Source: Chitinophagales bacterium
Lineage (GTDB): Bacteria > Bacteroidota > Bacteroidia > Chitinophagales > JANQFB01
Assembly: GCA_028278085.1 (NCBI GenBank)
Contig: JANQFB010000325.1
Coordinates: 1-50,745 of the forward strand
Length of the DNA stretch: 50,745 bases
Reading direction: 5' to 3'
Positions 11,044-32,101 of the stretch are shown here, one piece after another; the first letter of the stretch is position 1; each line of letters starts with the position of its first letter. The notes under the pieces are model-generated. The model worked only from the letters and a program-made list of their open reading frames with translations. It did not search any database and had not been told where the DNA came from. A program made the position numbers and the translations under genes.

Positions 11044-11620
11044 GTTTAAGAAGGTTTCGGATCGTGGCTTTTGCTTTCACCAACTCCCTTAAGGCTTTCA
11101 GGCACCGGGTTTTCTTATTGCGAACAATTTGTTCGTTTTTATAACCCATTTCCAGGTACAGTTTTTGAACAGGGATATTGTCAAAAATGGCCATCCGTAA
11201 CAGTCGCCGGCAATCGGCCTTTAGTTGATCCATAAGGCCCGCAAGCAGGTCTGTTTTCTCGGCACTGACGATCACCGGTAAAGGTTCGGTAATGGTATGC
11301 TCCACGGTGATGGATTCTTTAAACTTCGTTTCTGCCTTTTTCCTGCGCAACTGATCGATCCACTTATTCCGGCAAACGGCATAGATATAGGTTTTGATAG
11401 AGGCGGTTTGGATAAAATTGCCTGCTCTTACTTTTTCATAAAACACAATAACCGATTCCTGGAAAATGTCGTGTGCATCATCTTCGGAACCATTATTCTG
11501 CAAGACCAGGTTCCGGATAAGGTTGAAATACTCCCGGTAGATATACCTCAAGCCTTTGTTGCAATCCTCCGCGTTACCTTTGAGCAGGCCCAGGATCTTA
11601 TGATCGTTGCTAGTAGCCAC
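11036..11620 (-). CDS. ECF (sigma-70 group 4) RNA polymerase sigma factor
   Basis: Region 2 DDAHDIFQESVIVFY...IKTYIYAVCRNKWIDQLRR; region 4 LKADCRRLL...VRNKKTRCLKALRE; 194 aa. Confidence 0.9.
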   Translation of the reverse strand: MATSNDHKILGLLKGNAEDCNKGLRYIYREYFNLIRNLVLQNNGSEDDAHDIFQESVIVFYEKVRAGNFIQTASIKTYIYAVCRNKWIDQLRRKKAETKFKESITVEHTITEPLPVIVSAEKTDLLAGLMDQLKADCRRLLRMAIFDNIPVQKLYLEMGYKNEQIVRNKKTRCLKALRELVKAKATIRNLLKHE

Positions 11621-11666
11621 CTTGTCCGTTTGTCCTCCTGTTTCGGATTTTACCCACTTTTAATTT

Positions 11667-14600
11667 TCAAATCATTTGATACCGTTTGAGCCAAAACCGT
11701 CTGCCTAACAGGAAACCTAAGGAACCCAGGATAAAAAAGGCCCCTGCAAAGTAGCCGTAGCTCCTCCAACTATTGCCAAATTGCACCGGCTCCCGGTTGC
11801 CGATCACCACGAAATTAGCCCAGTAGAATGGGTGGGCTTTCACGGGATCGGCATGGGATAAAAAAGTTTTTTTGGCCTGGCTGAGCGCCAGGGATTTATT
11901 TTCTTCCCGGCTGATCCCTTCAAAAAATGTTTGCATCAATCGGGCGCTGCTCCGGTCCTCCGCCTGCCAGAGGCTCATGACCACGGCGGGACAACCGGCA
12001 TATCGAAAAGCCCGGGCCAAACTCATGGGGCCTTCACCCCCGATCAGCTTCCCATAACCGGTATTACAGGCGCTGAGTACTACCAGGTCGGCATCGAGAT
12101 CCATATTATATAATTCATAAACATTGAGGTATCCGTCATTTAGCGTGTCATGGGTTTGGGTGAATAGTAGTTTGGAAAGCATGGGTTCTTCATCGTCAGT
12201 CAGGGCATGCATAGCCAGGTGCAATACCCGGTAATCCCCGGCCATGGCCTTGAAATTCGCTTCACTGGCATCCGGGCCCAGATAGGCCATCCCACCCAAT
12301 AAACGATTGACACTTTTTACTTCCACCGAGTTTTTTAACAAGGGCCGGGCATTACTCCGGAATTGGGCAAATTTATCCAATGCAGAAGCGGCAGCCAAAG
12401 CCCCCATATCATAGGTGGGTGCAAAACCGGCATAGCTTTTTGCAGCCCGGTTTGCAGTGGTGGGATATCGATCCAGCCAGGTGGAATAGGCATAATGGAT
12501 CTGTTTTTCGTGGAGGAGGTAGGGCAATTTCCGGTAGTCGTTTTCTCCGGGAGCCGGCGCTGCCGTCAGCAAGGCTTCAAAAGGGATGAGATTAAGTGTA
12601 TTGTCGGGAATAAGGGTGATTGCCGCAATATCGGTTAAGATCTTCCGGCTCTCTTGCGGGAACAACCGGTCATATAAATAAGTTGCTGCAGTAATATAGT
12701 TTTCAAAGGATTGCCGGGGATCCAGGAGGCGTTGTGCAGGATCGGATATGCTTGACCGCAGCATGGCCACGTGCTCATGAAATTTTTCACCGATAGTATC
12801 CCGGTAAAAAATGACCTGAGAAGGGCTTAGTGTCCAAACAAACAAGGACGTGTCGCCCAGGAAATAAGCCATTATCGCCTCTCCGGAAGACAACTGTTGC
12901 TGTAGGGTGGACAAATCTGAACCGTCTACCTGGAATTGCAATTGAAAATATTTAGGGTAGTTTTCCCGGATATGATTTTGCAGCGCATAGTACTGCGATT
13001 TGGCGGAAAACAGCCGGTCGCTGCTTGCGGAGCGTTCTAGGGTATCATTTTTTTCATGGGCCTCCCTGACCTGCCGGGTATAGATAGCCTGTGCAGACCT
13101 TAACTGTTTTTCCCGTTGAAGGATACTGTCGGGAACTCCGGCAAACTGAAAGCTCCCGGCGGCCGCAATGGCCTTTTTCAACTGAAAAGATCTGCTGCGT
13201 TCCATCATTTGGAAGGATTCGGCCAGGTATCGCGGTTCATGCGTCTGTTGGTACAATTCAAAGGTGGTAGCCAGGGTCCCTTCGAATGTTTGTTGTATCT
13301 GCCGGTAAACGGTCTTATTGTTGGCATAATTGTCCATGTCCCTGCGAAGGGTGTCGACCAGGTCTGCCGCTCGTTTGTAGGTATGGCGGGCATGTACCAG
13401 GTAATGCGGATGATCATTTTTACTCATGAAATGCAAAACTTCCGCCTTACGATTGAGGATGTTGAGCAGGAAATTAACATTGGACACAACATTCAATGAA
13501 GGATTATCCCGGTAGTCGTTGCTTTCAAACCCCGGTACCAGCTTTCGGATCAATGTCTGATAAGTGGCTAAAGCGGAATCGGGGTAGCCTGCCTGCCGGA
13601 GATCTTTGCCCATATACAGGGCATTTGTAAAATATTCGCTGACATAGAAGTCGCTGAATTGGGTGAGCCGGCAAGCCTTCCGGAAATGCCTGATACTTGA
13701 GGTATATGCCTTTTTGGCCGAATAATATTTACCCCAACCTTTATGAGCAATACTGTGCGCAGGGTGATCGGGCGCCAAAAAACTCAGCAAAACCTGTTCG
13801 CCTTTTCGGGTATAATAATAGCAGGAATCAAAGGCACCGGCCAAAAGGAGTAGGTTGGCATAGTTGAGGTAGGACTTGCCTGTTTGTGGATTGCTTTCAC
13901 CGTGATGCAGCAAGGTGATCCTTAATTCCTCACGGGTATATGCCAGGCTTTTCCCGGGCTTATCGGGTTCGGAACTGGCATAAGACAGGTTTCGATAAAT
14001 ATCGATCAGGCTTTTGTGATCCGGACCGTGCCGCTGGATGGCCAGCTTCAGGCTTTTGAGGCCGTATTCGATATTTTTTTCCGTATTGCCCAGGCTCGAA
14101 AAAATGATCGATAGGACATTATAGACCATAGCCAGCTTTCTATCCTTTTCTTCCCTGCTCTGATTGGCCAGGAATAGGGCCGTGTCCGCATATGCCTGGG
14201 ATGCTTTGATCAGGTGCAGCGACAAATAGGACATGGATATTTGTCCGTATGATTTAATGATCGAAAAGTCTGTTTCCGCTAACCTGGCTTTTTTTACCCG
14301 GAGGGATCGTTTTTCGGTTTGAATAGACTTCCACCTGTTTCCATCATTTAGATACGCTCTTCTAAGGGTTTCATAGGTACTGATCAGGGATGGATGATCG
14401 TTGCCTTTGAGGCTTATGATCCGGTCAATCGCTTCCTGCAGGTCGGAAATGGCCAGTTTGGGAAACTTATTCCGGTGCTGAAATTTCCCCCTGGCGATAT
14501 AAAAGTTGATCCACAAAGTATCGTCGGCCGGCAGTTTTGAAGTGAGCGTCGTTAACAGTTGCCGGTAGATCAGGCCGGCTTCTTCATAGGATTTTTGCCG

Positions 14601-14849
14601 GCTATGGGATAAGGCGGAAAGATGCCTGGCCGAAATGTAGCGTTTCAGATAAGCATTTTTTTGGAACAGCTCCCCAGCTTCTTTAGCCCGGGCAATAGCA
14701 TTTTTATAGTCCTTGCTCCGATAGGCTTTGTTAGCGGCTTGCATCATTGCCTCGGCGCGTAGGGAATCTCCTTTGGAGGCATTTTCACCCTCAACAGGTA
14801 TCGTTAACAGACTATATGCCACCAAGATGAGTTGCCACTTGTATTTCAT
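11667..14849 (-). CDS. TPR-CHAT (caspase-like, clan CD) protease with signal peptide and C-terminal membrane anchor
   Basis: N-terminal signal peptide (ATG 14849); long TPR array; CHAT motifs IPDNTLNLIPFEAL, LHLAMH (catalytic His), LVVLSACNTG (catalytic Cys), HPFYWANF; C-terminal TM followed by basic residues. Confidence 0.9.
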   Translation of the reverse strand: MKYKWQLILVAYSLLTIPVEGENASKGDSLRAEAMMQAANKAYRSKDYKNAIARAKEAGELFQKNAYLKRYISARHLSALSHSRQKSYEEAGLIYRQLLTTLTSKLPADDTLWINFYIARGKFQHRNKFPKLAISDLQEAIDRIISLKGNDHPSLISTYETLRRAYLNDGNRWKSIQTEKRSLRVKKARLAETDFSIIKSYGQISMSYLSLHLIKASQAYADTALFLANQSREEKDRKLAMVYNVLSIIFSSLGNTEKNIEYGLKSLKLAIQRHGPDHKSLIDIYRNLSYASSEPDKPGKSLAYTREELRITLLHHGESNPQTGKSYLNYANLLLLAGAFDSCYYYTRKGEQVLLSFLAPDHPAHSIAHKGWGKYYSAKKAYTSSIRHFRKACRLTQFSDFYVSEYFTNALYMGKDLRQAGYPDSALATYQTLIRKLVPGFESNDYRDNPSLNVVSNVNFLLNILNRKAEVLHFMSKNDHPHYLVHARHTYKRAADLVDTLRRDMDNYANNKTVYRQIQQTFEGTLATTFELYQQTHEPRYLAESFQMMERSRSFQLKKAIAAAGSFQFAGVPDSILQREKQLRSAQAIYTRQVREAHEKNDTLERSASSDRLFSAKSQYYALQNHIRENYPKYFQLQFQVDGSDLSTLQQQLSSGEAIMAYFLGDTSLFVWTLSPSQVIFYRDTIGEKFHEHVAMLRSSISDPAQRLLDPRQSFENYITAATYLYDRLFPQESRKILTDIAAITLIPDNTLNLIPFEALLTAAPAPGENDYRKLPYLLHEKQIHYAYSTWLDRYPTTANRAAKSYAGFAPTYDMGALAAASALDKFAQFRSNARPLLKNSVEVKSVNRLLGGMAYLGPDASEANFKAMAGDYRVLHLAMHALTDDEEPMLSKLLFTQTHDTLNDGYLNVYELYNMDLDADLVVLSACNTGYGKLIGGEGPMSLARAFRYAGCPAVVMSLWQAEDRSSARLMQTFFEGISREENKSLALSQAKKTFLSHADPVKAHPFYWANFVVIGNREPVQFGNSWRSYGYFAGAFFILGSLGFLLGRRFWLKRYQMI

Positions 14850-14914
14850 CGGTTGGAAGTATTTGATCAACCTGTTTTCCCTTTTTTCACGGAAGGTTCC
14901 GGCATAACTCTATG

Positions 14915-14944
14915 TATCGGATGAGCCTGTCGATTTATAACCAA
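14915..14944 (-). promoter_or_regulatory. Candidate ECF-sigma promoter upstream of the CHAT-sigma-antisigma operon
   Basis: Minus strand TTGGTTATAAATC-N12-CGATA; matches the motif at 10193-10221. Confidence 0.55.
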
Positions 14945-15173
14945 TTTCTGACATTATTTTTTCAGTTTTTTTCGATAGTCCCGTACACCCATCACCGCTC
15001 AGGGATGATCCCGGTAGCTCCAATGTGATTGGATCCCCTGGAAATTGAACTAACCGATGCTGAAACAGTTAGCGCGGTGAAGTAAAATGTATGGAAAGTT
15101 AAAGAAGAAAGTTATATTTCATTAATTGTATGATGATATTTCCATCACCGATACATCGGCTGCTTAGGTTGTA

Positions 15174-17357
15174 TCAGACCCGCACACCTATGACACAAAC
15201 ATCGTCGACCTGTTCCATTTCCTTTTTCCAGGACTCGAAAGCCTGTTGAAGGATATTGCGCTGCTCCTGCATGGATCGATCCTGGTTAACCAGCAACAGC
15301 TCTCTGAAACGCCGGGGGGTGTATTTTCGAACTACCTGACCGGGCGGTAAGTCTTCCCGTCCGCCGAATTGATCCACGAAACCGTCCGTGAACATAAATA
15401 AGCTATCACCGCTTTGAAGTTGAAGCGTATGCCGGGTAAAGGGCTTTTCTTTAATAAACACGCCTATGGGTTGGCGATCCGCCTTTATCTCAACCAAGGT
15501 ATTTTGACCTTCTTTATCCGGTAAATAAGAGCTACCTGCGTCCACACTTGCCATGGTTTCCCGGTGACTGCCTTTCCTGATCAGGTAGAGCGGGTTATAG
15601 GCGCCCGAATATTCCAATTCATTAGTAGCTTTATTCCATGCACACAGGGATATATCCATTCCATCTTTTACTGTCATTTCGGAAGGCAAAGCCTTCTTTA
15701 CCGAAGTTTCAGATGGCTTGCCCTCCGAAACTTCAGTGGAGGAGGGCGAGCCGTCCTTTAGGCTATCAGCAGCATCCGATTGGCCCAAAGCTCTTTTAAT
15801 GCCCGACCGGAGGTGATTTAGGATCTCATTCGATTGTGTTATTCCTTTTTCAATCACGATCTCATTCAGCAGGCTTGTACCGATCATGCTCATAAATGCA
15901 CCCGGTACACCATGTCCTGTACAGTCGGCAACCACCCATATTACTTTGTTGTCGGCAGTTTCGTGCAGCCAATAGAAATCACCGCTGACCACATCCTTGG
16001 GTTGGTAAAGAATAAAATGGTTATCATCATTGCCTTCAAATGCGCCTTGAAATGCCTCGGTGGAGGGTAAGATGGCTTCCTGTATTTTCTGTGCGTAATT
16101 AATACTGTCGGTGATATGTTTGTTCTTTTCATCTACCAGGGCCTTTTGTGATGCGATCACATTCTTTTGCTTCCTTGCTACACTGAAGCGATTGAAGAGG
16201 AAGACCGAAAAAATGATCACCAAAAGCAAGCCCCCGCCTGCCGAAAGGATGATCAATTCCTGCCTTTTCACCTTTTCCCGGTGAGCCAGCTCCTGTTTTT
16301 CTTTCTCTGCCTTTAATAGCGCTTCTTTCTTTTCGAATTCATAGCCCATTTGTTGTTTGATGGCTTCCTTCTGACTTTTCTCATTATTGATGCTGTCGCG
16401 CAGGGTAATATAGGTGTCATATTGCTGTAAGGCCTCCTGCCATAAGGATTGTTTTTTATACACCTGGTAATAGCTTTTGGCGCAGGTCATGAGGTCTTCG
16501 GTATATCGGAGCCTTTCTGCCCATATCATTGCGCTGTCGGTGTACAGTTTTGCCAGCGCCGGACTTCCCTTGGAAAGATAGATATTGGCCATGGAATAAT
16601 AAATATTGGAATGGAAAACGAAATAACCGGTGGCATCATAATAGGATTTGGCACTTTTGTAATAGCGGATGGCGGAATCTGGCAATTGTGCGTATTTGGC
16701 ATCGACGGCTTTACAGAATTGCTCCGAACCGCGTCCGAAATCATCTCCTTGCCGGGCGTAATAGTGTGCGGCTTTTTTCAGCGCTACCGATGCCTCCGGA
16801 AGCTTTTTTATGGAATGATACAAGCTCGATAAGTTCCAGTATCGATCTCCCAGGACGGCGATCTCTTCCCTCGCTTCCGAGATTTGGATACTTTTTTCAT
16901 AATAGGTCAGCGCTTCCTCAATATTTCCCAAAGTTTTGTACAGGATGGCTATACTGTTCAAAATAGAGGCTTCGGAAGATTTGTTTTGGATGTTCTCTGC
17001 AATTCTCAGGGCTTCAAATGACAAATTCAGGGCCGTGGAAATGTCTCCCTTGCTGCTGTATACCGATCCCAGCATATGAATGACCGAGGAAAAGACATCA
17101 TTGTAAAAATTACTTTGTTCCGTGGTCAGGTTTGGCCGACTGATCCTGCTTTTCAACAGATCCATCATGGACAAGCCGGTAGTCATGGCCGAATCCAGGT
17201 TGTTGTTCATGAATACCACCATCTGTGCTTCCAGGCCTTTTATGGCTAACGAGTCCTCCCGAAAATCATTATTTTTTACCGGATCGGTCGTATCCGCCAG
17301 TGGAGCTTGGAGAATAAGGAGGTTGAACAGGATGAGATAAAACCAGTTGATCTTCAT
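15174..17357 (-). CDS. TPR sensor + TM + PP2C/SpoIIE-family phosphatase (paralogue 2)
   Basis: Signal peptide, TPRs, TM, PKDVVSGDF, ADCTGHGVPGAFMS, DGMD, TDGFVDQFGG, DDVCV. Confidence 0.9.
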   Translation of the reverse strand: MKINWFYLILFNLLILQAPLADTTDPVKNNDFREDSLAIKGLEAQMVVFMNNNLDSAMTTGLSMMDLLKSRISRPNLTTEQSNFYNDVFSSVIHMLGSVYSSKGDISTALNLSFEALRIAENIQNKSSEASILNSIAILYKTLGNIEEALTYYEKSIQISEAREEIAVLGDRYWNLSSLYHSIKKLPEASVALKKAAHYYARQGDDFGRGSEQFCKAVDAKYAQLPDSAIRYYKSAKSYYDATGYFVFHSNIYYSMANIYLSKGSPALAKLYTDSAMIWAERLRYTEDLMTCAKSYYQVYKKQSLWQEALQQYDTYITLRDSINNEKSQKEAIKQQMGYEFEKKEALLKAEKEKQELAHREKVKRQELIILSAGGGLLLVIIFSVFLFNRFSVARKQKNVIASQKALVDEKNKHITDSINYAQKIQEAILPSTEAFQGAFEGNDDNHFILYQPKDVVSGDFYWLHETADNKVIWVVADCTGHGVPGAFMSMIGTSLLNEIVIEKGITQSNEILNHLRSGIKRALGQSDAADSLKDGSPSSTEVSEGKPSETSVKKALPSEMTVKDGMDISLCAWNKATNELEYSGAYNPLYLIRKGSHRETMASVDAGSSYLPDKEGQNTLVEIKADRQPIGVFIKEKPFTRHTLQLQSGDSLFMFTDGFVDQFGGREDLPPGQVVRKYTPRRFRELLLVNQDRSMQEQRNILQQAFESWKKEMEQVDDVCVIGVRV
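15661..15747. repeat. Three REP-like stem-loop units embedded in frame in PP2C paralogue 2
   Basis: Units at 15661-15686 and 15691-15717 (minus strand; the latter reads GCCATCT-GAAAC-TTCG-GTAAA-GAAGGC) and 15720-15747 (plus strand GCCCTCC-GAAAC-TTCA-GTGGA-GGAGGGC). Confidence 0.65.
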
Positions 17358-25362: not shown

Positions 25363-25508
25363 TGGCCTTTCCGGATCAGATCCACCGTATAGGTTTTGGT
25401 AAATCTTAATAAAAGTCCGGATTTTTCCAAATTTATCCTATTACTGCCAGTACTGCTAAAGCAATCGGTCCACCTGCCTGACAAATCAGGAAACCCCGGG
25501 CTCGCCCG

Positions 25509-25716
25509 GAAGTGAAAAAGAAAAATGCGTAAAATGGCCTCCCCAAATATATGCCGCATAAAAACAAAAAGCCCTTTCTGGATCGACAAGGCTTTTTCTA
25601 CTTTTATGCAGGGCTTGTCCTGAAGTGAAAAAGAAAAATGCGTAAAATGGCCACTCCAAATATATACCGCATAAAAATAAAAAGCCTTGACTTTTACGAC
25701 AAGGCTTTTTCTACTT
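25509..25716. repeat. Two imperfect direct copies of a ~95-bp unit (period 113 bp) just outside the left att site
   Basis: GAAGTGAAAAAGAAAAATGCGTAAAATGGCC...CGACAAGGCTTTTTCTACTT starts at 25509 and at 25622. Confidence 0.9.
25679..25710. terminator. Bidirectional terminator-like hairpin, probably the original tRNA-Glu terminator displaced by the integration
   Basis: AAAAAGCCTTG-N10-CAAGGCTTTTT perfect 11-bp inverted repeat, about 10 bp beyond the duplicated tRNA 3' end. Confidence 0.65.
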
Positions 25717-25720
25717 CAGG

Positions 25721-25743
25721 GCAGCCCCTAGGAGAATCGAACT
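25721..25743. repeat. Left att core (duplicate of tRNA-Glu 3' end)
   Basis: GCAGCCCCTAGGAGAATCGAACT, identical to 32029-32051. Confidence 0.95.
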
Positions 25744-25854
25744 ATCATTATTCACCATTATCAATTCATATCAAAAATGCAGGATAATCGCTTGTTATAG
25801 CTTAATTTAGGAATTAAGAGTAATAAAGAGAAATAAGATTTGATCAATAAAAAG

Positions 25855-25873
25855 TGTCCCCTATACTGTCCCC
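25855..25873 (+). promoter_or_regulatory. Putative integrase arm-type binding sites (left)
   Basis: TGTCCCC twice with 12-bp period, preceded by AAAG; same arrangement at 31954-31972. Confidence 0.65.
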
Positions 25874-25932
25874 TGGTTAAAATTTTGTTTATCTTTATTG
25901 TACCTCATTGATAACCTTTAATTCATACAGTT

Positions 25933-27189
25933 ATGGCAAAAACAAGATTCTTCCTTAAAGACCCAAAAGGGGACAAACCTACATTAGTTTACCTTTTCTT
26001 TAGCTTCAACAGCAATAGGTTGAAATATTCTACCGGGGAAATGATACACCCTAAGTACTGGAATAATGACAAGGCAGTGGAACGTGCAATTAATAGCAAA
26101 AAGTTTCCTGAATACCCGGAATTTAATCAAGCGTTGAATGATATTGAAACCCTTGTAAATAACATCCACCGGAGATTAAAAAATGATGGACACATTCCAA
26201 CGGTTGAAATGATCCGGGATGAACTGGATAAAAATTTGGGGAGGGTTAAAGTTGGTACTAATAAATCGTTTTTGGGTTACCTGGATGAATATATTGAAAT
26301 TACAAAAGTCAAAAAACGAGCTAACACAATTAAAAAGTTTAACGCCCTAAAAACCCATCTTGTTGATTTTCAAAAGATCAAACGGTTTAAACTATCCTTT
26401 GGGAAAATAGATATGTCATTCTTTGAGAAGTTTGAAAATTATTTAATGACCGAGACAGAAGATAAACCATCATTAGTTGATAACAGTATAGGTAAATATA
26501 TTGCAGCGTTAAAGGCGTTTCTCAACTGGACAGTTGAACGTGAATTAAATGCAAATTTGAAGTTTCAAAAGTTTCCAGTTTACCGTAGGGAGGCCGATAT
26601 TATTTATTTAACCGAATTGGAACTGATGAAGCTGTATGAGTTTGACCTTTCCCAAAAGAAACACTTAGAGCGAATACGTGATGCGTTTTGTTTTGGTTGT
26701 TTTACTGGTCTTCGATATAGCGACTATGCACAGATAACCTCCAAAGATATAAAGGAAGATAGTATTAAAATCCGGTCCGTCAAGACTAAGGATTTTCTCA
26801 ACGTTCCTTTGAATGATTATGCTATCGAGATACTTGAAAAATACAACTATCAATTGCCAGTAGTTGCCAACCAACCAATGAACCGGGCAGTAAAAGAGAT
26901 AGGAGAGATGGCCGGAATAGATACCCCCGTTATAATTACCAAGTTACAAGGCGGTAAAACAATTGAAACCCAAGGCCCAAAGTATGAGTTATTGAGTACC
27001 CATTGTGGACGTAGAACCTTTGTTACTTTATCACTGGAAAAAGGTATGAGGCCCGAAACTGTTATGAGTATAACAGGCCATAAGGACTATCAAACTTTTA
27101 AAAAATATGTAAAGATCACTGACAAGGTTAAAAAGGTCGAAATGAATCGAGTTTGGAAAAAACCTGAAACAGCATTAAAGGCTGTCTAA
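25933..27189 (+). CDS. Tyrosine recombinase/integrase with N-terminal arm-DNA-binding domain
   Basis: N-terminal RLKYSTG..IHPKYWN arm-binding motif; catalytic residues FTGLRYSD (R), KT (K), HCGRRT (HxxR), TGH and KKY all present. Confidence 0.95.
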   Translation: MAKTRFFLKDPKGDKPTLVYLFFSFNSNRLKYSTGEMIHPKYWNNDKAVERAINSKKFPEYPEFNQALNDIETLVNNIHRRLKNDGHIPTVEMIRDELDKNLGRVKVGTNKSFLGYLDEYIEITKVKKRANTIKKFNALKTHLVDFQKIKRFKLSFGKIDMSFFEKFENYLMTETEDKPSLVDNSIGKYIAALKAFLNWTVERELNANLKFQKFPVYRREADIIYLTELELMKLYEFDLSQKKHLERIRDAFCFGCFTGLRYSDYAQITSKDIKEDSIKIRSVKTKDFLNVPLNDYAIEILEKYNYQLPVVANQPMNRAVKEIGEMAGIDTPVIITKLQGGKTIETQGPKYELLSTHCGRRTFVTLSLEKGMRPETVMSITGHKDYQTFKKYVKITDKVKKVEMNRVWKKPETALKAV

Positions 27190-27195
27190 AATACC

Positions 27196-27223
27196 GGGGG
27201 TAGCCGATTAGCTACCCCCTTTT
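27196..27223 (+). terminator. Intrinsic terminator after the integrase
   Basis: GGGGGTAGC-CGATTA-GCTACCCCC-TTTT, perfect 9-bp stem. Confidence 0.75.
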
Positions 27224-27250
27224 CATTTCTCTCATTGATACCCCGAAATC

Positions 27251-28012
27251 ATGGCAAAGAATTACACATTAGAAGATGTTAGCAAAATGTTGCACGAGGC
27301 CCAATTAGAAGCCCAAAAAGAATTTGAACATTGGAATAAATCGGAGTTGCCTAAATTGATCCGGGGATTATTTGTCGAAAAGGAAATTGAAAAATTAAAA
27401 GAGCTAAATAATGATTGCCTTTTACATTTAAACGAATTTCTAGCGAAAAATCCAATATTCGAGACTCTCACCCCGGATAATGTTAATAATGAAATTCTGA
27501 ACCTTGTAAATATGTCAGATAATTTCATCCCATTTAAACCATGTAAGGTTATTACATGCAATGAAGAAAACACAAACTTTGAAAGGTGCAAGAAACTTTA
27601 CTTATTGAATACCTATTACAGTCTCTTGTTGGACTATTCAAAAGACCGGATAAATGAGTTAGCAGGGGGTGAGCCGAAAATCGAACCATTAGAAAACCCA
27701 ATAGACCTGAATACGATTCCCGGACGTGTTATGCTGTTTGAGTATTTGGGATTGATAGACTTCTTAACAGAAAAATATGAGATCACCTTTCAAAGTACTA
27801 CCATGTCAAAAACTTTAGGGTATCTCATGCAGGAAAACCCGGACAGTATAAGGCCATATCTTTCAAGTCTTCGCGTGTTCCAAAAAGGTAAAAATAACCC
27901 CAAAAATTCTAAATCGCTAACCCAAGTTATTAAGACTTTGGAAGACTTGAAATTGAAACCTGACCTTGTGCCAAAGGTCCAAAACGACCTCAAAAAAATA
28001 ACATCCGAATAA
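27251..28012 (+). CDS. Hypothetical element protein, possible C-terminal HTH (candidate activator of xis-rep)
   Basis: 253-aa ORF between int and xis; QSTTMSKTLGYLMQENPDSIRPYLSSL looks HTH-like (inference). Confidence 0.7.
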   Translation: MAKNYTLEDVSKMLHEAQLEAQKEFEHWNKSELPKLIRGLFVEKEIEKLKELNNDCLLHLNEFLAKNPIFETLTPDNVNNEILNLVNMSDNFIPFKPCKVITCNEENTNFERCKKLYLLNTYYSLLLDYSKDRINELAGGEPKIEPLENPIDLNTIPGRVMLFEYLGLIDFLTEKYEITFQSTTMSKTLGYLMQENPDSIRPYLSSLRVFQKGKNNPKNSKSLTQVIKTLEDLKLKPDLVPKVQNDLKKITSE

Positions 28013-28100
28013 AAAGAATAAAACTTGTGGGAACCCTCAATAAATCCTACAAAATTCCTACCTCAATTTTGGCAAAGAACAATCAAAAAATCTTTGCCTT

Positions 28101-28403
28101 ATGCAACAACAAATACTTATTACTATTCCCATCGACCAATTCGAGACAAGACAAAAAGAATTAATTAGAGAGGTACTGGCTGAACAACCAACACCTGAAC
28201 CCACTTCCCCAGAGTCCCCCGATTACCTCACCCGCAAAGAGACAGCCAAACTATTAAGAATCTCACTCCCTACCTTACACGAATGGACTAAGTCAGGGGA
28301 TTTGAAATCTTATCGTATTGCCGGGAAGATTCGGTACAAGACAGCCGAAATTGAAGCTGCATTTAAACAGGTAGATGTATTGAAATACAAAAGGAAAGTA
28401 TAA
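28101..28403 (+). CDS. Excisionase-like helix-turn-helix protein (HTH_17/MerR-like)
   Basis: YLTRKETAKLLRISLPTLHEWTKSGDLKSYRIAGKIRYK is a canonical Xis-type wHTH. Confidence 0.9.
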   Translation: MQQQILITIPIDQFETRQKELIREVLAEQPTPEPTSPESPDYLTRKETAKLLRISLPTLHEWTKSGDLKSYRIAGKIRYKTAEIEAAFKQVDVLKYKRKV

Positions 28404-28416
28404 TGCGGACCATCAT

Positions 28417-28485
28417 AAAAAAGGGCAACTTTTTACGGCTGCCCTACCTCATTGATTAACCGCAGTTATGACAACTACAGAAATC
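28417..28485 (-). ncRNA. Predicted ~70-nt antisense (counter-transcribed) RNA over the rep leader
   Basis: Minus-strand Bacteroidota promoter TTTG(28520-28517)-N19-TACCTTTG(28497-28490) and minus-strand terminator AGGGCAGC-N8-GTTGCCCT-TTTTT (28445-28417). The 5' end is approximate. Confidence 0.55.
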
Positions 28486-28506
28486 CCTACAAAGGTACGT
28501 TTTTGA
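28468..28506 (+). CDS. Putative 12-aa leader peptide translationally coupled to rep
   Basis: ATG 28468 gives MTTTEIPTKVRF*; its TGA (28504-28506) overlaps the TTG (28503-28505) that begins MIDFIKI. Confidence 0.4.
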   Translation: MTTTEIPTKVRF

Positions 28507-29774
28507 TTGACTTCATCAAAATACAAGATTTACCCATAGATCATAATGATCTCATTAATTCTCCGTATCTGGAATTTGAAGGTAAGTATAACCGACTAAC
28601 AGGAGAAATCTATGAATTTCCATTGTCTGCTGAATACAATAAAATAACATTCTCAATCAATGATAATGCTAAGTATAGAGTAGATAACCCCAGCATTCCA
28701 TATAAAATCCATTGCAACGTTTCCGGGAGTATCCACAAGTACTTTGATGCAAATGATAGCAACGCATCAGATTTTACTTATCGGCAGCTAATTGATTCCA
28801 TCATAGAAATATGTTCCAAGTTCAGGCTAAACCCCTTTAAATGCGTTCTAACGAATGTAGAGTTTGGAGTTAACATAATACCGCCAATACCATCTGACAA
28901 GGCTCTACGTAATCTTATTAATCATTGGGGTCATGAATTTACACACGTGGGAGGTAAGGCCAAAGGTAAGGAATGCTGTAAACAACAATACTGGATCAAA
29001 ATATATGATAAGAACTGGAAAAGAAAATCGGGTCATGAACTATTACGAATAGAGATCCATGTTGCTAAGATGAATTATCTAACAGAGATCGGAATAAGAA
29101 CGTTAGCGGATTTATTGAGCCTGGATAAAATAATGCAATTAGGAGCAAAATTAGAGGCTATATGGAACGGTATACGATATTTTGATGATACCCTACTTTT
29201 TGATAAAATGAATGATAAGGAGCGTTCATTTATGAATCAATGGAGAAACCCGATCTACTGGCAGGAACTAAAGGAAATTAAATATACAACCTACAAATAT
29301 CACGGCAAAAGGTTCAAAGAAATTACAGAGAAATACAGCCGGGATCACCGGCAAAAACAAATAGGATCACTTATCAAAAAAAAGTGCGCTGAACTATTAA
29401 TCTGTGATCAGGAAACACTATCCAAATTAACCATTTTCTTAGATCAATATTCTAAGGCCAAAACTATCCAAATTACTACTCCTAGTATAGAATTAATCAT
29501 TCCAGAAACACACACAACTCTATCACCTAATAATGGACAAGAAAAAAGAAGATGCAAAACATGTGGGAAGGATATATCAAACCAGAAGGAAGATAGTTTT
29601 TTTTGTAGTGCAAAGTATGTAGGAGAAGAAAGAGCAAAACAATGCCGGAACGCCGATAGTAATCCTAGGAATTACATTAAGAGAAAGATTAATAGGATAC
29701 ACATGTATCCAGTACTATTTGATCCAAATAGATACCTGGTACTAAATGAAGATCAAAAGAAGTTATTAGCATAA
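28503..29774 (+). CDS. Replication initiator, rolling-circle Rep_trans / phage gene II-like, with C-terminal Cys4 zinc ribbon (start TTG 28503 preferred over 28452)
   Basis: MIDFIKI start; GSIHKY, NVEFGVNI, IKIYDK (putative catalytic Tyr) and LLRIEI motifs; C-terminal CKTC...FCS...CRN. Confidence 0.7.
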   Translation: MIDFIKIQDLPIDHNDLINSPYLEFEGKYNRLTGEIYEFPLSAEYNKITFSINDNAKYRVDNPSIPYKIHCNVSGSIHKYFDANDSNASDFTYRQLIDSIIEICSKFRLNPFKCVLTNVEFGVNIIPPIPSDKALRNLINHWGHEFTHVGGKAKGKECCKQQYWIKIYDKNWKRKSGHELLRIEIHVAKMNYLTEIGIRTLADLLSLDKIMQLGAKLEAIWNGIRYFDDTLLFDKMNDKERSFMNQWRNPIYWQELKEIKYTTYKYHGKRFKEITEKYSRDHRQKQIGSLIKKKCAELLICDQETLSKLTIFLDQYSKAKTIQITTPSIELIIPETHTTLSPNNGQEKRRCKTCGKDISNQKEDSFFCSAKYVGEERAKQCRNADSNPRNYIKRKINRIHMYPVLFDPNRYLVLNEDQKKLLA

Positions 29775-29996
29775 TTTGAATGCAATCACCACAAGTACCA
29801 TACATGGGATTTACGGCCATTTATCCCTTTATAGGGGTTACCCCTTACAAAAGGTAGAAATGCGCTAAAATGCCGTTTCTGCATACGGAGAACATGAATC
29901 TTGATTAGTACCCGGATTTAGTAATATTATCTATATGGCTATCGCTGTTATGGTCCCTGGGTCCACATCTGAAATTTAGGAAACATTTTATTAATG

Positions 29997-30227
29997 CTAA
30001 ATATCAAAATCAAATAATTCCTTCATTGAAACGCTTAACCCTTTAGCAATCCTGTAAACTGTTGAAGTAGAAACATTATGCTCTCCTCTTTCTATTCGAC
30101 CTATCTGCTTACCATGATTTTCAATTAAATTGCCTAATTGTTCCTGGGTTAGCTTGCGTTCGTTACGCAATTGCCTTATTCGCCTGCCCAACGCCTTTAA
30201 AAATTCTTCATCCCTGACATATTCCAT
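29997..30227 (-). CDS. XRE-family (HTH_3) transcriptional regulator
   Basis: LGRRIRQLRNERKLTQEQLG...IGRIERGEHNVS...IAKGLSV. Confidence 0.9.
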   Translation of the reverse strand: MEYVRDEEFLKALGRRIRQLRNERKLTQEQLGNLIENHGKQIGRIERGEHNVSTSTVYRIAKGLSVSMKELFDFDI

Positions 30228-30345
30228 GAATGCAAGTTTGCATATTGCCAGAAATTATAAAACCACATATTTGTAGCAAATAATTGTCGGTTTTCTTGGA
30301 TACAATGATAGAGTTCTATAATTTGGCTGGTACATATTATTGCAT

Positions 30346-30535
30346 TAGTCGCTCCCTGCGTCAAAAACTGGTGATTTTTTAGAAATACAGGGATTTTGAT
30401 TAATGCCCACATCCTGGCTATTGCCCGTATGCTTGCGGGTAACTAGTCGGGATTAAGTTAAACGTGGGCATAGTTCGTCTGTATTTCGGGTATACCAGTA
30501 CCTTGACGTAAGGCGGCTATGTCCCACGTTTTTTT
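30346..30535 (+). ncRNA. Long structured RNA / leader (rod-like hairpin with alternative terminator-like fold)
   Basis: Seven nested helices, 58 bp in total, with 7 G.U pairs and no A.C mismatches within the helices. It begins just after a -7-like TATTATTG (30335-30342) and ends in a T7 tract. Confidence 0.7.
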
Positions 30536-30556
30536 ATGCCTTAAACTCATGTAAAC

Positions 30557-30742
30557 ATGAAATCTAAACAATCAAAGAAACTCTGCAAACAAGTAGACAA
30601 CCTGCAATTAGAAATTGAAACATTGACAGCTACCGTCGAGATGTGTTTAACCCGGCAAAGTGAGTTTATTAAAACAGTTAATACCGTATCTACCAACGCC
30701 AAAGACTGTATTGCCGATATAAAGGCAACCCTATCCAAGTAG
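30557..30742 (+). CDS. Small coiled-coil hypothetical protein downstream of the structured leader
   Basis: 61 aa, ATG in A-rich context, heptad-like pattern; followed by a hairpin at 30775-30804. Confidence 0.55.
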   Translation: MKSKQSKKLCKQVDNLQLEIETLTATVEMCLTRQSEFIKTVNTVSTNAKDCIADIKATLSK

Positions 30743-30774
30743 TTCCAGGATAAAACTTCATTTTATTAATTCAC

Positions 30775-30804
30775 GGCCCTACCTGCTATTTGTAGGTAGT
30801 GGCC
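30775..30804 (+). terminator. Hairpin, possible terminator of the leader + 61-aa ORF transcript
   Basis: GGCC-CTACCTGC-TATTT-GTAGGTAG-T-GGCC followed by T-rich sequence. Confidence 0.45.
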
Positions 30805-30831
30805 TATTATTTCATTCCAAAAAGGATCATC

Positions 30832-31107
30832 ATGGAATATGATATTTTATATGTTATCGCATACGATAGGCGTATTGGATACTGGATATTGATCACAGAG
30901 AATATTATGGATGAGAATGAAGGGTATTCAGAATCGGGATTTAAAACGCTATCAGAGGCAAAAGAAGTAGTAACACATGAAATCAACCTGGTTAATGAAC
31001 TTGAAAAGGATAAGAAAGTAATTGAGGTAGATATTAGTGATCGTTCTGATGGCTTAGATTCAGAGGGAATAACAAGATTAATTGTTGAAATGCTCAATCG
31101 CTCCTGA
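30832..31107 (+). CDS. Small acidic hypothetical protein (likely ATG 30832)
   Basis: 91 aa; beta-beta-beta-alpha-like pattern with SGFKTLSEAK. Confidence 0.55.
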   Translation: MEYDILYVIAYDRRIGYWILITENIMDENEGYSESGFKTLSEAKEVVTHEINLVNELEKDKKVIEVDISDRSDGLDSEGITRLIVEMLNRS

Positions 31108-31329
31108 AGATGAAAAGAGGCAAAGAGAGAAATTAATTAGACTTGTCAAAAAAAAGGGGAAGATCCCCAACACCCGATATAATCACCCCCACAATTTTCA
31201 AAAATTCAGACAATTGTATACTAAAGTAGTATAATTTAGTATGGCACGGGGGAAGATTAACACGAATAAAGTACACTAAGTCTACTATAATAATCTTAGA
31301 TAAAGCTTGGAAAAATAAAGCGAGCAAAA

Positions 31330-31545
31330 TCATTCTTGGCTCTTTAACCACGATTGGACTTTTTCTTCCATTTTGGCCTCGGCTTCATTTCGGGTTTTGC
31401 CATAAGTTTCACTAAATTGATCACCTATCTCTTTATCCTTGACCCCATTTTTATATGTAACCATCCGCACTTTTGCAACATATTTAAATGTGCCAATTGG
31501 TTCCATTGGGTCTACAATAATATAATAACCGTAGTTTTTATTCAT
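31330..31545 (-). CDS. Small hypothetical protein, HicB-N/dsRBD-like pattern
   Basis: 71 aa; beta strands followed by ETYGKTRNEAEAKMEEKVQSWL. Confidence 0.55.
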   Translation of the reverse strand: MNKNYGYYIIVDPMEPIGTFKYVAKVRMVTYKNGVKDKEIGDQFSETYGKTRNEAEAKMEEKVQSWLKSQE

Positions 31546-31620
31546 TTCTTGAAGTAAACTTTCGCAAGCGTTCTTCTAAAGTTATAGTTTTTTATTCACT
31601 TATTTTTTAATTTTAGTATC

Positions 31621-31899
31621 ATGCCATTTGAAACCGGACATACAAAGCAGGGAGGACGTAAAGCAGGAACACGCAACAAAACAACACTGGCGGTTAAGGA
31701 GAAGATTCAACAGTTTATCGACGGTTACACCATTGAAGAAATGCAGGAGGATTTTAAAAAATTAGAACCATTAGAGAAGTTGAAATTATTTACAGCGATG
31801 ATCGAATTTGTGCAACCTAAATTGCAACGTACCAATGCGATTATTGAAGATCATACCATAAATGTAACAGTTGGAGGAAAATCTTATAAGAAACGGTAA
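31621..31899 (+). CDS. Small terminase-subunit-like protein (DUF5681-like N-terminus)
   Basis: MPFETGHTKQGGRKAGTRNK Gly/basic N-terminal motif, two central helices, PKLQR and a short C-terminal beta tail. This is an architecture I associate with TerS-like proteins; not database-confirmed. Confidence 0.55.
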   Translation: MPFETGHTKQGGRKAGTRNKTTLAVKEKIQQFIDGYTIEEMQEDFKKLEPLEKLKLFTAMIEFVQPKLQRTNAIIEDHTINVTVGGKSYKKR

Positions 31900-31953
31900 A
31901 TGAGCACACCTATTGATGAAGTAGTCTGTAATTGGGATCAAAACGGTTCAAAG

Positions 31954-31972
31954 TGTCCCCCCTAGTGTCCCC
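31954..31972 (+). promoter_or_regulatory. Putative integrase arm-type binding sites (right)
   Basis: TGTCCCC twice with 12-bp period, preceded by AAAG, as at 25855-25873. Confidence 0.65.
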
Positions 31973-32028
31973 CAAAAGAATATGACCCCTACAAACGATT
32001 GATTTTCAGGAGAGTATATTGTGAAGTT

Positions 32029-32051
32029 GCAGCCCCTAGGAGAATCGAACT
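32029..32051. repeat. Right att core (within tRNA-Glu)
   Basis: GCAGCCCCTAGGAGAATCGAACT, identical to 25721-25743. Confidence 0.95.
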
Positions 32052-32101
32052 CCTGTTTTCAGAATGAAAATCTGACGTCCTAACCACTAGACGAAGGGGC
32101 C
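32030..32101 (-). tRNA. tRNA-Glu (anticodon TTC), CCA not encoded
   Basis: Reverse complement folds as acceptor GGCCCCT/AGGGGCT, D-arm GTCTAGTGGTTAGGAC, anticodon arm TCAGA-TTTTCAT-TCTGA and T-arm AGGAG-TTCGATT-CTCCT. Confidence 0.97.

Follow-up and report, generated by a model that had tools for sequence, protein, structure and literature searches.

NBU1 and NBU2 of Bacteroides are helper-dependent elements that use a tyrosine integrase to target the 3' end of a tRNA gene, carry small excision cofactors after int and, at ~10 kb, also encode a MobP relaxase and a primase-like gene. PICMIs of the Vibrionaceae are ~6 kb long, have the gene order int-iolg-alpA-up1-prim-up2, and are packaged as concatemers inside full-size helper capsids (PMC10803314, available sections). 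VEIMEs are, like the element described here, small, integrase-bearing and without capsid genes, and some occur as insertions in Flavobacteria; homologues of the small terminase, or replication genes of plasmid type, are present in part of them, and VEIME concatemers have been interpreted as signs of rolling-circle replication (PMC9618062, available sections). A tyrosine integrase and a Rep_trans-type nickase, which our element also combines, occur in streptococcal MobT/Rep_trans integrative mobilisable elements (IMEs) and with the Tn916, ICEBs1 and ICESt3 relaxases. According to the accessible part of a review, these nickases can replicate the excised circle and initiate transfer, and the elements are often found, as ours is, at the 3' end of a gene for a tRNA or a ribosomal protein (PMC5704250).

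The window, i.e. the whole stretch of 50,745 nucleotides analysed from a Chitinophagales bacterium, contains a 6.3-kb element inserted in the 3' end of a tRNA-Glu gene, which the element's own 23 bp restores. A repeat search returned two perfect direct copies of 23 bp, spaced 6,308 bp apart, where by our own arithmetic ~6e-7 exact 23-mer pairs per 9 kb are expected by chance. The tRNA coordinates show that this repeat is exactly the 3' end of the tRNA. The GC content is 0.34-0.38 in the element vs 0.45-0.53 in the flanks. Its genes comprise an integrase at the end far from the intact tRNA, a conserved gene (orf2), an HTH_17 excisionase, a 440-aa Rep, an XRE regulator and small ORFs, arranged with the other features as follows:

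25721..25743, no strand: attL, the displaced 23-bp copy of the tRNA-Glu 3' end (perfect repeat D7, sequence read)
25851..25873, plus strand: left arm-type site, two GTGTCCCC-like half-sites (repeat D10)
25933..27189, plus strand: tyrosine integrase, 418 aa, with N-terminal arm-binding domain (Pfam, PHROGs)
27196..27219, plus strand: GC-rich hairpin then T run, terminator-like, 3' of int (inverted repeat I6)
27251..28012, plus strand: orf2, 253 aa, between int and xis (position kept in relatives)
28101..28403, plus strand: Xis, excisionase or AlpA-like HTH_17 protein, 100 aa (Pfam, NCBIfam, PHROGs)
28422..28445, no strand: hairpin directly upstream of Rep, a terminator or candidate replication origin
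28452..29774, plus strand: Rep, 440 aa, with a modelled Rep_trans fold, then a helical domain and a C-terminal zinc ribbon (AF2 model)
29997..30227, minus strand: XRE-family regulator, 76 aa (HTH_31 / HTH_3 at 1.5e-11, Pfam)
30557..30742, plus strand: orf61, divergent from the XRE gene (sub-threshold matches only in Pfam, PHROGs and PADLOC)
30799..31107, plus strand: orf102 (no significant family in Pfam, PHROGs, NCBIfam or PADLOC)
31330..31545, minus strand: orf71 (no family in Pfam, PHROGs, NCBIfam or PADLOC)
31621..31899, plus strand: 92-aa protein, distantly DUF5681-related, with N-terminal GGR..GT.NK motif (profile of relatives)
31950..31972, plus strand: right arm-type site, paired GTGTCCCC-like half-sites (repeat D10, sequence read)
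32029..32051, no strand: attR core, the 3'-terminal 23 bp of the intact tRNA-Glu (repeat D7, tRNA coordinates)
32029..32101, minus strand: tRNA-Glu(UUC), integration target, kept intact (ARAGORN)

Searches of Pfam, PHROGs and NCBIfam gave no primase, helicase, terminase, capsid, relaxase or T4SS family match in the element, and PADLOC no defence model beyond generic XRE HTH matches to control-protein and other regulator models. An earlier note, made from the letters alone, had described the att repeats and circle length, an intact integrase distal from the tRNA, xis, a Rep with YDK motif and zinc ribbon, an XRE gene, and the lack of primase/helicase, large terminase, capsid, relaxase and T4SS genes; the repeat search, family matches and translations bear all of this out. 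Its gene list, with four small unknown ORFs, also held, and gains the 253-aa orf2, the arm-type repeats and a TTG start for Rep.

The integrase matches Phage_integrase (2e-12), Phage_int_SAM_5 (2.7e-14) and Arm-DNA-bind_5 (4e-05) in Pfam, as well as the phrog_1 integrase (8.9e-32), and the catalytic positions R, HxxR, H and Y are present in its translation, as read by eye. The arm-type sites, one near each element end and 87% identical, are likely binding sites of its arm domain; the circular relative L124 has the same paired motif on both sides of the attP core. Xis matches HTH_17 (3e-12), phrog_66 and TIGR01764 excise (9.8e-08; 32.2 bits, above the cut-off of 28.8). No family was matched by orf2 in Pfam, PHROGs or NCBIfam; its iterated profile recovered 9 more proteins, 8 of which belong to the positional int-to-Rep set, and its nearest Atlas clusters are Bacteroidota hypotheticals (score 0.95).

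With NBU1 and NBU2 the element thus laid out shares the integrase, the tRNA 3' end, the row of cofactors after int and the need for a helper, while their MobP relaxase and primase-like gene are absent. With PICMIs it shares the size of ~6 kb, the succession of int, a variable gene, AlpA/HTH_17, a variable small gene, a replication gene and accessory or defence genes, and, as far as the available text goes, the lack of capsid and terminase genes (PMC10803314). By analogy to PICMI iolg, orf2 is a candidate excision cofactor (PMC10803314). However, PICMIs replicate through a primase (DUF3987/DUF5906) rather than a Rep_trans-fold nickase, and integrate beside fis in Vibrio rather than in a tRNA gene of Bacteroidota hosts (PMC10803314). 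For our element, induction and packaging would be predictions, and VEIMEs differ from it in being defined by their presence in virus particles (PMC9618062).

The likely start codon of Rep is the TTG at 28503, which yields MIDF, the N-terminus of its family. It has a K-I-Y-D-K motif and a 4-Cys ribbon at the C-terminus, and matches no Pfam, PHROG or NCBIfam model, Rep_trans (PF02486) included. The top 6 Foldseek matches of its AF2 model (pLDDT 78.7) are 4cwe, 4cij and 4cwc at prob 1.0, and VIA aligns 220-239 residues with RepD/RepDE-type structures at Z 11.5, 11.5 and 11.3, the following match being at 6.0. As modelled, Rep is therefore a Rep_trans-type rolling-circle initiator fold, in agreement with the earlier note, and it probably drives rolling-circle replication. 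The pT181-family initiators RepC, RepD and RepDE, together with RepSTK1 (PDB 4cwc, 4cwe, 4cij), share with Rep this catalytic fold (Z 11.3-11.5), a Y-x-K type motif, and acidic residues in equal order and at similar spacing, but only 7-13% identity and no sequence-profile match. Rep also differs from them in its added helical domain and zinc ribbon, and in residing on an integrative element instead of a plasmid.

Ten residues are invariant in 78 Rep sequences (G92, S93, H95, N104, E137, N141, K183, Y185, R199 and E201). In spacing, the conserved D20, E137, Y185 and E201 resemble D46/D142/Y191/E214, which are the metal ligands and catalytic Tyr in RepDE (PMC13107129, available part), a proposed equivalence that is based on this spacing; the ranges aligned by VIA (Rep 13-318 vs 39-301) are consistent with D20 corresponding to D46. 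By hhalign, Rep gave nothing against three Bacteroidota Rep_trans proteins (prob 0.3).

A search of Bacteroidota for the same gene set, suggested in the earlier note, shows that the element, itself complete, is a member of a family that is real and recurs. With the Rep profile, 4,255 representative proteins are recovered at E <= 1e-3, and matches occur in 22 of 401 genomes of the phylum, 15 of them at E <= 1e-20. Judged by record title, every one of 55 GTDB loci comes from Bacteroidota, and the orders represented are Bacteroidales, Cytophagales, Flavobacteriales, Chitinophagales and Sphingobacteriales. Among 69 Bacteroidota Rep loci, an integrase is found in 61 and an excisionase in 63, in the order int-orf2-xis-(orfX)-Rep-cargo; where a metagenome contig extends 3.5 kb or more upstream of Rep, the figures are 18/18 for int and 16/18 for xis. 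Five relatives could be delimited by tRNA 3'-end repeats, measure 5.4-10.4 kb, and have int distal from the tRNA in every case. The cargo of family members is often of defence type (e.g. type I R-M, AAA_15, HEPN, STAND and Panacea).

Circular forms, for which the earlier note had proposed to look, were found for relatives. Terminal overlaps of 79-127 bp, longer than any att core, are present in 5 of 80 metagenome contigs, and these represent 4 distinct circles of 5,005-7,362 bp, all with int, xis and Rep. All four also have an attP architecture, with two arm-site pairs around a core resembling a tRNA 3' end. Circular contigs with this gene set and a reconstituted attP indicate that relatives do excise. 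The element in the window itself occurs in contigs of a single sequencing run only, possibly the window's own source; there, neither an attP junction nor an empty attB was seen, and its depth is not raised (12.9 in the element; 14.8 and 10.6-11 in the flanks).

The TerS-like identity that had been proposed for the 92-aa ORF holds in part. Directly, the ORF matches no TerS, DUF5681 or other family in Pfam, PHROGs or NCBIfam, and its structure model is too uncertain to assign a fold (pLDDT 56). A 2-sequence profile, however, recovers 19 relatives, and DUF5681 is matched by 5 of the 20 sequences (best 7.2e-07); hhalign links the family to phage DUF5681 proteins at 82%, across 24 N-terminal columns only. 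In the Atlas, the top cluster (score 0.96) is a viral one, 31% of whose members have DUF5681. These profiles point to a distant relationship with DUF5681. In Leptospira phage LE3 and phage ctMEh928, the gene immediately before the annotated large terminase, where a small terminase would lie, encodes a DUF5681 protein; a third phage record has the same arrangement with the downstream ORF identified by our own reading only, while in phiEa21-4 the DUF5681 gene does not adjoin a terminase. Within the Rep family, 11 of 69 loci have a DUF5681-like ORF after Rep, and locus L076 has a canonical DUF5681 there; such an ORF is also found in 12 of the 45 metagenome contigs that extend 700 bp or more beyond Rep, and in 3 of the 4 distinct circles. 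In another relative, L070, Rep is directly followed by a genuine Terminase_2 small terminase (3.2e-26), and a tape-measure-like gene also lies after Rep. From this sequence context, the 92-aa protein is a candidate DNA-packaging specificity factor.

The explanation we prefer, to which we give about an even chance as a whole, is that we are dealing with one member of a large and as yet unnamed family of integrative elements in Bacteroidota, 5-10 kb in size and helper-dependent for spread. Int and Xis, probably with orf2, would recombine attL with attR into a 6,308-bp circle; Rep would nick an origin on it, with Tyr185 bound to the 5' end, and host helicase and polymerase would run rolling-circle replication to give multicopy circles or concatemers. 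A helper would be needed, since the element has no transfer genes. In the most speculative steps, this helper would be a tailed phage, in a satellite lifestyle like that of PICMIs or VEIMEs, the 92-aa protein would mark element DNA for the large terminase of that phage, and expression of the accessory module would be under the control of the XRE regulator. Phage packaging is favoured, given the PICMI-like layout, the DUF5681-like ORFs, the Terminase_2 of L070, the defence cargo, the absence from plasmids and the few TraJ genes (see below). No sign of encapsidation appeared in any data examined, and two Pfam families found no large terminase in the host bin (94% complete, 590 contigs). The Rep family is found in 1 of 50,697 records of a phage collection and at 2 loci in a pattern scan of IMG/VR; satellites without hallmark genes may escape classification as viral. 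Of the undescribed satellite class suggested earlier, the recurrent family and PICMI-like layout stand. Capsid-less minimal satellites are already published (PICMI, VEIME), so the novelty would lie in the replication module and the phylum, not in the concept.

The caveat of the earlier note, that Rep might be a MobT-like relaxase, is a live if unlikely rival. The element would then be an integrative mobilisable element, with Rep nicking an oriT after excision, the single strand exported via the T4SS of a co-resident conjugative element, and rolling-circle replication serving maintenance only. NBU-like IMEs are typically int-xis-tRNA islands of such size, and Rep has the appropriate fold: Rep_trans-type proteins double as relaxase and replication initiator in Tn916, ICEBs1 and many streptococcal IMEs, and 35 of 118 streptococcal IMEs of this type have no coupling protein (PMC5704250). 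Yet MobT proteins match PF02486 and partner with TcpA-type coupling proteins of Firmicutes, whereas Rep fails PF02486 and has its zinc ribbon, and the Bacteroidetes IMEs known in 2017 all had canonical relaxases, so far as the accessible text covers them (PMC5704250). In addition, no relaxase, coupling protein or T4SS family is found in the element or in the sampled cargo of relatives, and none of 72,556 plasmid records contains the Rep family. The CTnDOT TraJ marker is present in 2 of the 15 strongly Rep-positive genomes (background 22/401), in both of which the Rep match has stop codons, although TraJ is just one marker and a helper may be present only for a time.

We regard as similarly improbable an integrative rolling-circle plasmid without dedicated transfer, spreading vertically or by chance (vesicles, transformation, generalised transduction) and kept by defence cargo such as restriction-modification. 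Circles in metagenomes, a core of integration, excision and replication genes only, the frequency of defence cargo and the 57 of 69 loci without any DUF5681-like, i.e. packaging-like, ORF would all fit. However, the spread over five orders and 4,255 diverged Rep clusters suggests efficient horizontal transfer, DUF5681-like or TerS genes recur directly after Rep, and no free plasmid among the records searched carries the family. Finally, a filamentous-phage satellite or remnant, whose Rep-made ssDNA circles a helper inovirus would coat and extrude, like RS1 with CTXphi, is very improbable: the best listed viral structural matches of Rep are Inoviridae replication proteins (16 at E <= 0.001), Phage_CRI is weakly matched by 2 of 78 family members (best E 0.0058), and the XRE protein is sub-threshold to the RstR repressor model (1.7e-10; 41 bits, cut-off 80), but the element's ORFs include neither a visible Zot-like ATPase nor a small membrane protein resembling a coat protein, and the associated DUF5681, Terminase_2 and tape-measure-like genes are those of tailed phages.

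The XRE gene is present in 10 of the 69 family loci. Perfect stems of at least 8 near the Rep start occur in 21 of 68 relatives, vs 5 of 68 control windows within Rep.

The window carries a single tRNA gene, a tRNA-Glu(UUC) on the minus strand (32029–32101), and the last 23 nt of this gene are repeated perfectly 6,308 bp to the left, at 25721–25743 (direct-repeat family D7). By our own arithmetic, chance alone would give roughly 6e-7 exact 23-mer pairs in 9 kb, and the 23-bp match coincides with the tRNA 3' end. Between these att repeats the GC fraction is 0.34–0.38, compared with 0.45–0.53 outside, and two pairs of GTGTCCCC-like half-sites (repeat family D10) that look like arm-type integrase sites lie just inside the ends. 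The perfect tRNA-Glu repeat, the drop in GC and the set of integrase (int), excisionase (xis), Rep and XRE genes together confirm the element that the earlier note had delimited. Its features are as follows.

25721–25743: left copy of the 23-bp att repeat
25851–25873: left pair of half-sites
within the element: tyrosine integrase with Arm-DNA-bind_5 and Phage_integrase domains (Pfam)
between int and xis: 253-aa gene (orf253), no assigned family
within the element: excisionase, HTH_17 (PF12728) / TIGR01764
28452–29774 (+): 440-aa Rep, matching no family
within the element, opposite strand: XRE regulator
within the element: three to four small ORFs, no assigned function
31621–31899 (+): 92-aa ORF at the far end of the element
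31950–31972: right pair of half-sites
32029–32101 (−): tRNA-Glu(UUC), in whose 3' end the element sits

Within the element, Pfam, PHROGs and NCBIfam give no match to a primase, helicase, terminase, capsid, relaxase or T4SS family, which bears out the earlier observation that primase, capsid and conjugation genes are missing. PADLOC reports no defence model among the small ORFs of the window, with the XRE HTH protein giving generic control-protein and regulator matches only, and the comparison of orf253 with PDB sequences returned nothing meaningful. A prophage remnant and a true inovirus were both ruled out as the identity of the element because structural, lysis, Zot-like and coat-like genes are all absent from it. 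Directly left of attL, at 25498–25716, a 113-bp unit is present as a tandem duplicate (106 nt aligned, 87% identity); each copy contains a hairpin made of an A-run, a GC-stem and a T-run, and the unit looks like a duplication of the original terminator region of the tRNA.

Rep has no Pfam match even at E ≤ 1, no PHROG or NCBIfam model and no meaningful match among PDB sequences. The alignment of the 21 relatives returned by a first search is invariant at GS.HK, N, E.G.N, K.YDK, R.E and D, and ends in a C-terminal CxxC...C...C ribbon. The AlphaFold model built on that alignment has a pLDDT of 78.7, with values above 90 across most of the core, and its six best PDB chains in Foldseek all belong to 4cwe, 4cij and 4cwc (prob 1.0; E 1.5e-5 to 2.5e-4), i.e. 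Rep_trans rolling-circle initiators. VIA-align gives Z scores of 11.5, 11.5 and 11.3 over 220–239 aligned residues, the next entry being TBP at 6.0. By both comparisons the model has the TBP-like catalytic fold of Rep_trans proteins, in agreement with the rolling-circle function that had been proposed for Rep from the sequence.

In an alignment of 78 Rep sequences, E137, Y185 and E201 are invariant and D20 is conserved in at least 90%. The RepDE active site comprises D46, D142, Y191 and E214, and the spacings of 48 (E137–Y185) and 16 (Y185–E201) residues in Rep compare with 49 and 23 in RepDE (PMC13107129). The aligned ranges of Rep and RepDE fit D20 to D46, an equivalence that is based on spacing and not on superposed residues. 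Rep is thus probably an active nickase. Its listed start, a TTG at 28452, adds 17 residues that are missing from relatives, and the TTG at 28503, which yields the MIDF... N-terminus shared by nearly all family members, is probably the true start. A hairpin lies 30–90 bp before the Rep start in the window (28422–28445) and in relatives, often with the form AAAGGG..CCCTTT. Perfect stems of at least 8 bp occur upstream of Rep in 21 of 68 loci, compared with 5 of 68 control windows within Rep, and the hairpin could be an xis-rep terminator or a candidate replication origin.

At the level of sequence, Rep falls outside the Pfam Rep_trans family (PF02486). None of 78 family members matches PF02486, a search of the whole host genome with that profile gives no match, and hhalign of Rep against three Bacteroidota PF02486-type proteins finds nothing (prob 0.3). 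A single protein, L094, bridges both profiles weakly, with 2.3e-15 to the Rep family and 5.1e-4 to PF02486, the latter under its cut-off. The Rep family extends the Rep_trans fold to a further branch and to a phylum new to it.

The Rep profile matches 4,255 representative proteins at E ≤ 1e-3, and 2,059 at 1e-30, among 1.84 billion. Matches are present in 22 of the 401 genomes that we sampled across the phylum, 15 of these at E ≤ 1e-20. Pattern scans of GTDB, IMG/VR and metagenome contigs were built on a tighter alignment of 11 Rep sequences, and among GTDB species genomes the scan yields 55 loci, all from Bacteroidota going by record titles, with carriers that include Bacteroidales, Runella, Arcicella, Flavobacterium, Chitinophagaceae, Mucilaginibacter, Pedobacter, Hymenobacter and others. 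Among the carriers are cultured strains such as Runella salmonicolor S5, Arundinibacter roseus DMA-K-7a, Segetibacter aerophilus NBRC 106135, Flavobacterium caeni CGMCC 1.7031, Marivirga lumbricoides, Marinifilum flexuosum DSM 21950 and Hymenobacter armeniacus BT189. The Rep family is absent from 72,556 plasmid records and occurs in one of 50,697 records of a phage collection. In four sampled genomes (G051, G263, G175 and G187) the Rep matches contain in-frame stop codons, so decayed copies of the element exist.

For synteny, we grouped every ORF lying up to 9 kb from Rep into clusters in 69 pooled loci (12 from the sampled genomes, 2 from IMG/VR, 55 from GTDB and the window, minus one source that yielded no Rep ORF after filtering), with no duplicate Rep sequences in the pool. 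An HTH_17 (xis) gene is present in 63 of these loci and an integrase in 61, and the clusters next in frequency are a DUF5681-like ORF (11), XRE (10) and DUF4468 (8). Gene order is near-constant: int, a variable gene of 160–500 aa and xis come first, Rep is next, frequently preceded by an additional xis-like gene (about 140 aa), and variable cargo comes last. Homologues of orf253 occupy the same position at a minimum of eight other loci, and among metagenome contigs with at least 3.5 kb upstream of Rep, int is found in 18/18 and xis in 16/18. The earlier note had suggested looking for this gene set at tRNAs elsewhere in Bacteroidota, and five relatives are indeed delimited by tRNA 3'-end repeats (Phe, 5.4 kb; Leu, 8.6 kb; Gln, 10.4 kb; Leu, 6.5 kb; Cys, 6.9 kb), with int distal from the tRNA in all five. 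Housekeeping genes follow within a few kilobases of Rep in many loci, and many elements therefore appear short. Cargo across relatives includes type I restriction-modification, KAP, STAND and AAA_15 ATPases, HEPN, Panacea and DUF3800. The DUF4468 protein (about 190 aa; "TBP-like fold" in its Pfam name; phrog_4002) lies just after Rep in its eight loci, for example at 11839–12378 of L082, and also on the 7.4-kb circle L170.

Evidence for excision comes from relatives on metagenome contigs. The scan of these contigs gives 80 loci, five of which have identical ends of 79–127 bp, an overlap that far exceeds any att core and marks the molecules as circular or tandem. They represent four distinct circular units of 5,005, 5,177, 5,296 and 7,362 bp, one of them present in two records. 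All four carry int, xis and Rep, and three have a DUF5681-like ORF directly 3' of Rep. Upstream of int, each circle presents two arm repeats, a hairpin, a core resembling a tRNA 3' end in reverse complement, and two further arm repeats, which is the attP layout expected from joining the ends of an integrated copy; one circle (L124) has the same arm motif as the window, GTGTCCCC. Since these contigs are circular and have a reconstituted attP, relatives do excise and are abundant enough to assemble as circles. The 5,005-bp unit was assembled in two separate metagenome records (L124 and L168). For the element of the window, the only run listed as containing the stretch is a DNA run, possibly its source, and no RNA run is listed. 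The contigs of this DNA run show neither a circle nor an empty-site joint, and depth in that run is 12.9-fold in the element vs 14.8 and 10.6–11 in the flanks; the contigs of this single run neither support nor refute its excision.

The 92-aa ORF, which the earlier note had described as TerS-like, matches no family on its own (Pfam at E ≤ 1, PHROGs, NCBIfam) and has no meaningful match among PDB sequences. A word-indexed homologue search returned the ORF alone, and tblastn against phage records gave nothing at E ≤ 1. A homologue with 35% identity over 66 residues lies 3' of Rep in L022, and the profile of these two sequences recovers 18 further proteins, three of them already annotated as DUF5681. 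Scanned singly, 5 of the 20 family members match DUF5681 (PF18932; best 7.2e-07), the window's own ORF not being one of them, and 15 of 20 match phrog_11043 (function not assigned). In the Atlas, the 92-aa ORF is nearest to small viral DUF5681 clusters (0.96), and its AlphaFold model consists of three helices with a pLDDT of 56, too weak for a fold search. Small DUF5681-like ORFs are also found in 12 of 45 metagenome contigs with at least 700 bp downstream of Rep.

A canonical DUF5681 gene (3.6e-20) lies downstream of Rep in the relative L076; it has homologues in 303 phage records, and we examined four of these contexts. In Leptospira phage LE3 and phage ctMEh928 the DUF5681 gene lies immediately before the annotated large terminase gene and overlaps it, in MT839917 it precedes an ORF that we read by eye as a putative large terminase, and in phiEa21-4 it does not precede a terminase. 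Island ORFs and phage DUF5681 proteins have phrog_26239, phrog_4114 and phrog_8771 in common (functions not assigned), and hhalign aligns the island family with the phage proteins at 82% probability (E 1e-5) over just 24 N-terminal columns. The gene slot before the large terminase suggests that DUF5681 is a small terminase family. The TerS-like label is a reasonable lead and not a finding: relatives of the ORF occupy the slot before terL in two annotated phages, but neither the ORF nor its relatives match a TerS family in Pfam or PHROG. MT839917 (5.4 kb, "Bacteriophage sp.") was also considered as a possible packaged element and rejected as a phage fragment outside this family; it holds a serine recombinase, a ParB-methylase, the DUF5681 gene and, downstream, the putative large terminase ORF.

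Several known classes of element resemble this family in part. PICIs and SaPIs have a primase-helicase replication module and capsid-remodelling genes and span about 10–15 kb, whereas the present element measures 6.3 kb and matches none of those gene families. In PICMIs, which are capsid-less satellites, the gene order is int, iolg, alpA, up1, prim and up2, with the genes after int and before prim variable and of unassigned function; PICMIs are described as having no terminase and as being packaged as concatemers by a virulent phage (PMC10803314). Our family has this layout, with Rep replacing the primase. The PICMI model in the same source combines an integrase with an AlpA-type regulator (PF05930 or PF12728; PMC10803314), and the element has both (Phage_integrase and HTH_17, PF12728). 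However, no DUF3987 or DUF5906 primase is found on any of its ORFs in Pfam, PHROGs or NCBIfam, and PICMIs sit next to fis, whereas the element sits in tRNA-Glu. VEIMEs are capsid-less satellites common in the sea, some of them integrated in Flavobacteria (PMC9618062); they are defined as concatemers inside virus particles, while the present element is known from sequence.

We consider it highly probable that the element is integrative, excising and helper-dependent and replicates by a Rep_trans-type nickase. It would excise, then replicate through this nickase, and would need a helper for its spread. That the helper route is also that of a phage satellite brings the full statement to about even chances. 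More tentatively, the family may be a new, phylum-wide class of Bacteroidota phage satellites that replicate by a hitherto unannotated Rep_trans branch and not by a primase, and in a subset of its members a minimal DUF5681-type small terminase would redirect the large terminase of the helper.

Conjugative mobilisation of the element is, in our judgment, unlikely. Rep_trans/MobT proteins double as relaxases in Firmicutes, whereas the known Bacteroidetes IMEs, according to the same review, use canonical relaxases, i.e. MobP, MobV, MobQ or MobC (PMC5704250). The element shares a tyrosine integrase at a tRNA 3' end with canonical Bacteroidetes IMEs such as NBU and Tn4555, but no relaxase family is found on any of its ORFs (Pfam, NCBIfam). 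In addition, the CTnDOT TraJ marker is present in just 2 of the 15 strongly Rep-positive genomes, both with stop codons in the Rep match, against a background of 22/401; this only leans against conjugation because TraJ is a single marker and related genomes are not independent. The host bin, which has no Terminase_6N, TerL_ATPase or TraJ match, is uninformative because it is fragmented (94% complete, 590 contigs). The absence of any dedicated transfer route is just as unlikely as conjugative mobilisation. The best named matches of Rep in the viral model library are Inoviridae replication proteins, and a satellite of a filamentous phage is a very improbable reading.

Bacteroidota are major bacteria of the gut, soil, freshwater and sea, and to our knowledge no phage satellite has been experimentally characterised in the phylum. 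Full-text literature searches, with subscription journals outside their coverage, gave no description of this element family. Given thousands of diverged Rep clusters, frequent defence cargo and free circles, these islands would make up a sizeable unannotated part of the Bacteroidota mobilome. Because neither Pfam nor PHROG nor NCBIfam has a model of the Rep family, current annotation and SatelliteFinder-type models overlook these islands, which could be counted with a profile made from the present Rep alignment. The family also offers a testable candidate function for DUF5681, that of a small terminase, and the phylum-wide satellite reading would, if true, give DUF5681 that function.

Some loci combine the family with phage genes. 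IMG/VR locus L034 and MT835707, both gut-derived, have a 97%-identical module of xis, Rep, antirepressor (Ant) and XRE genes. In L034 the module lies beside genes for an endolysin, a reverse transcriptase (phrog_1423) and a tail protein, and in MT835707 beside two integrases and a DarB-like antirestriction gene, with no structural genes seen; Rep there may belong to a phage or to an element adjoining one. In L070, a Terminase_2 small terminase gene (3.2e-26; phrog_51, 1.7e-27) and a 1,124-aa tape-measure-like gene lie directly 3' of Rep (11289–15341), and this locus could be either a satellite of larger size or a hybrid between a family member and a prophage remnant. In L021, Rep is followed by two paralogous proteins of about 430 aa and then by a second integrase. 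One of the two (11560–12834, 424 aa) has a Peptidase_S74 domain, an endosialidase chaperone typical of phage tail fibres.
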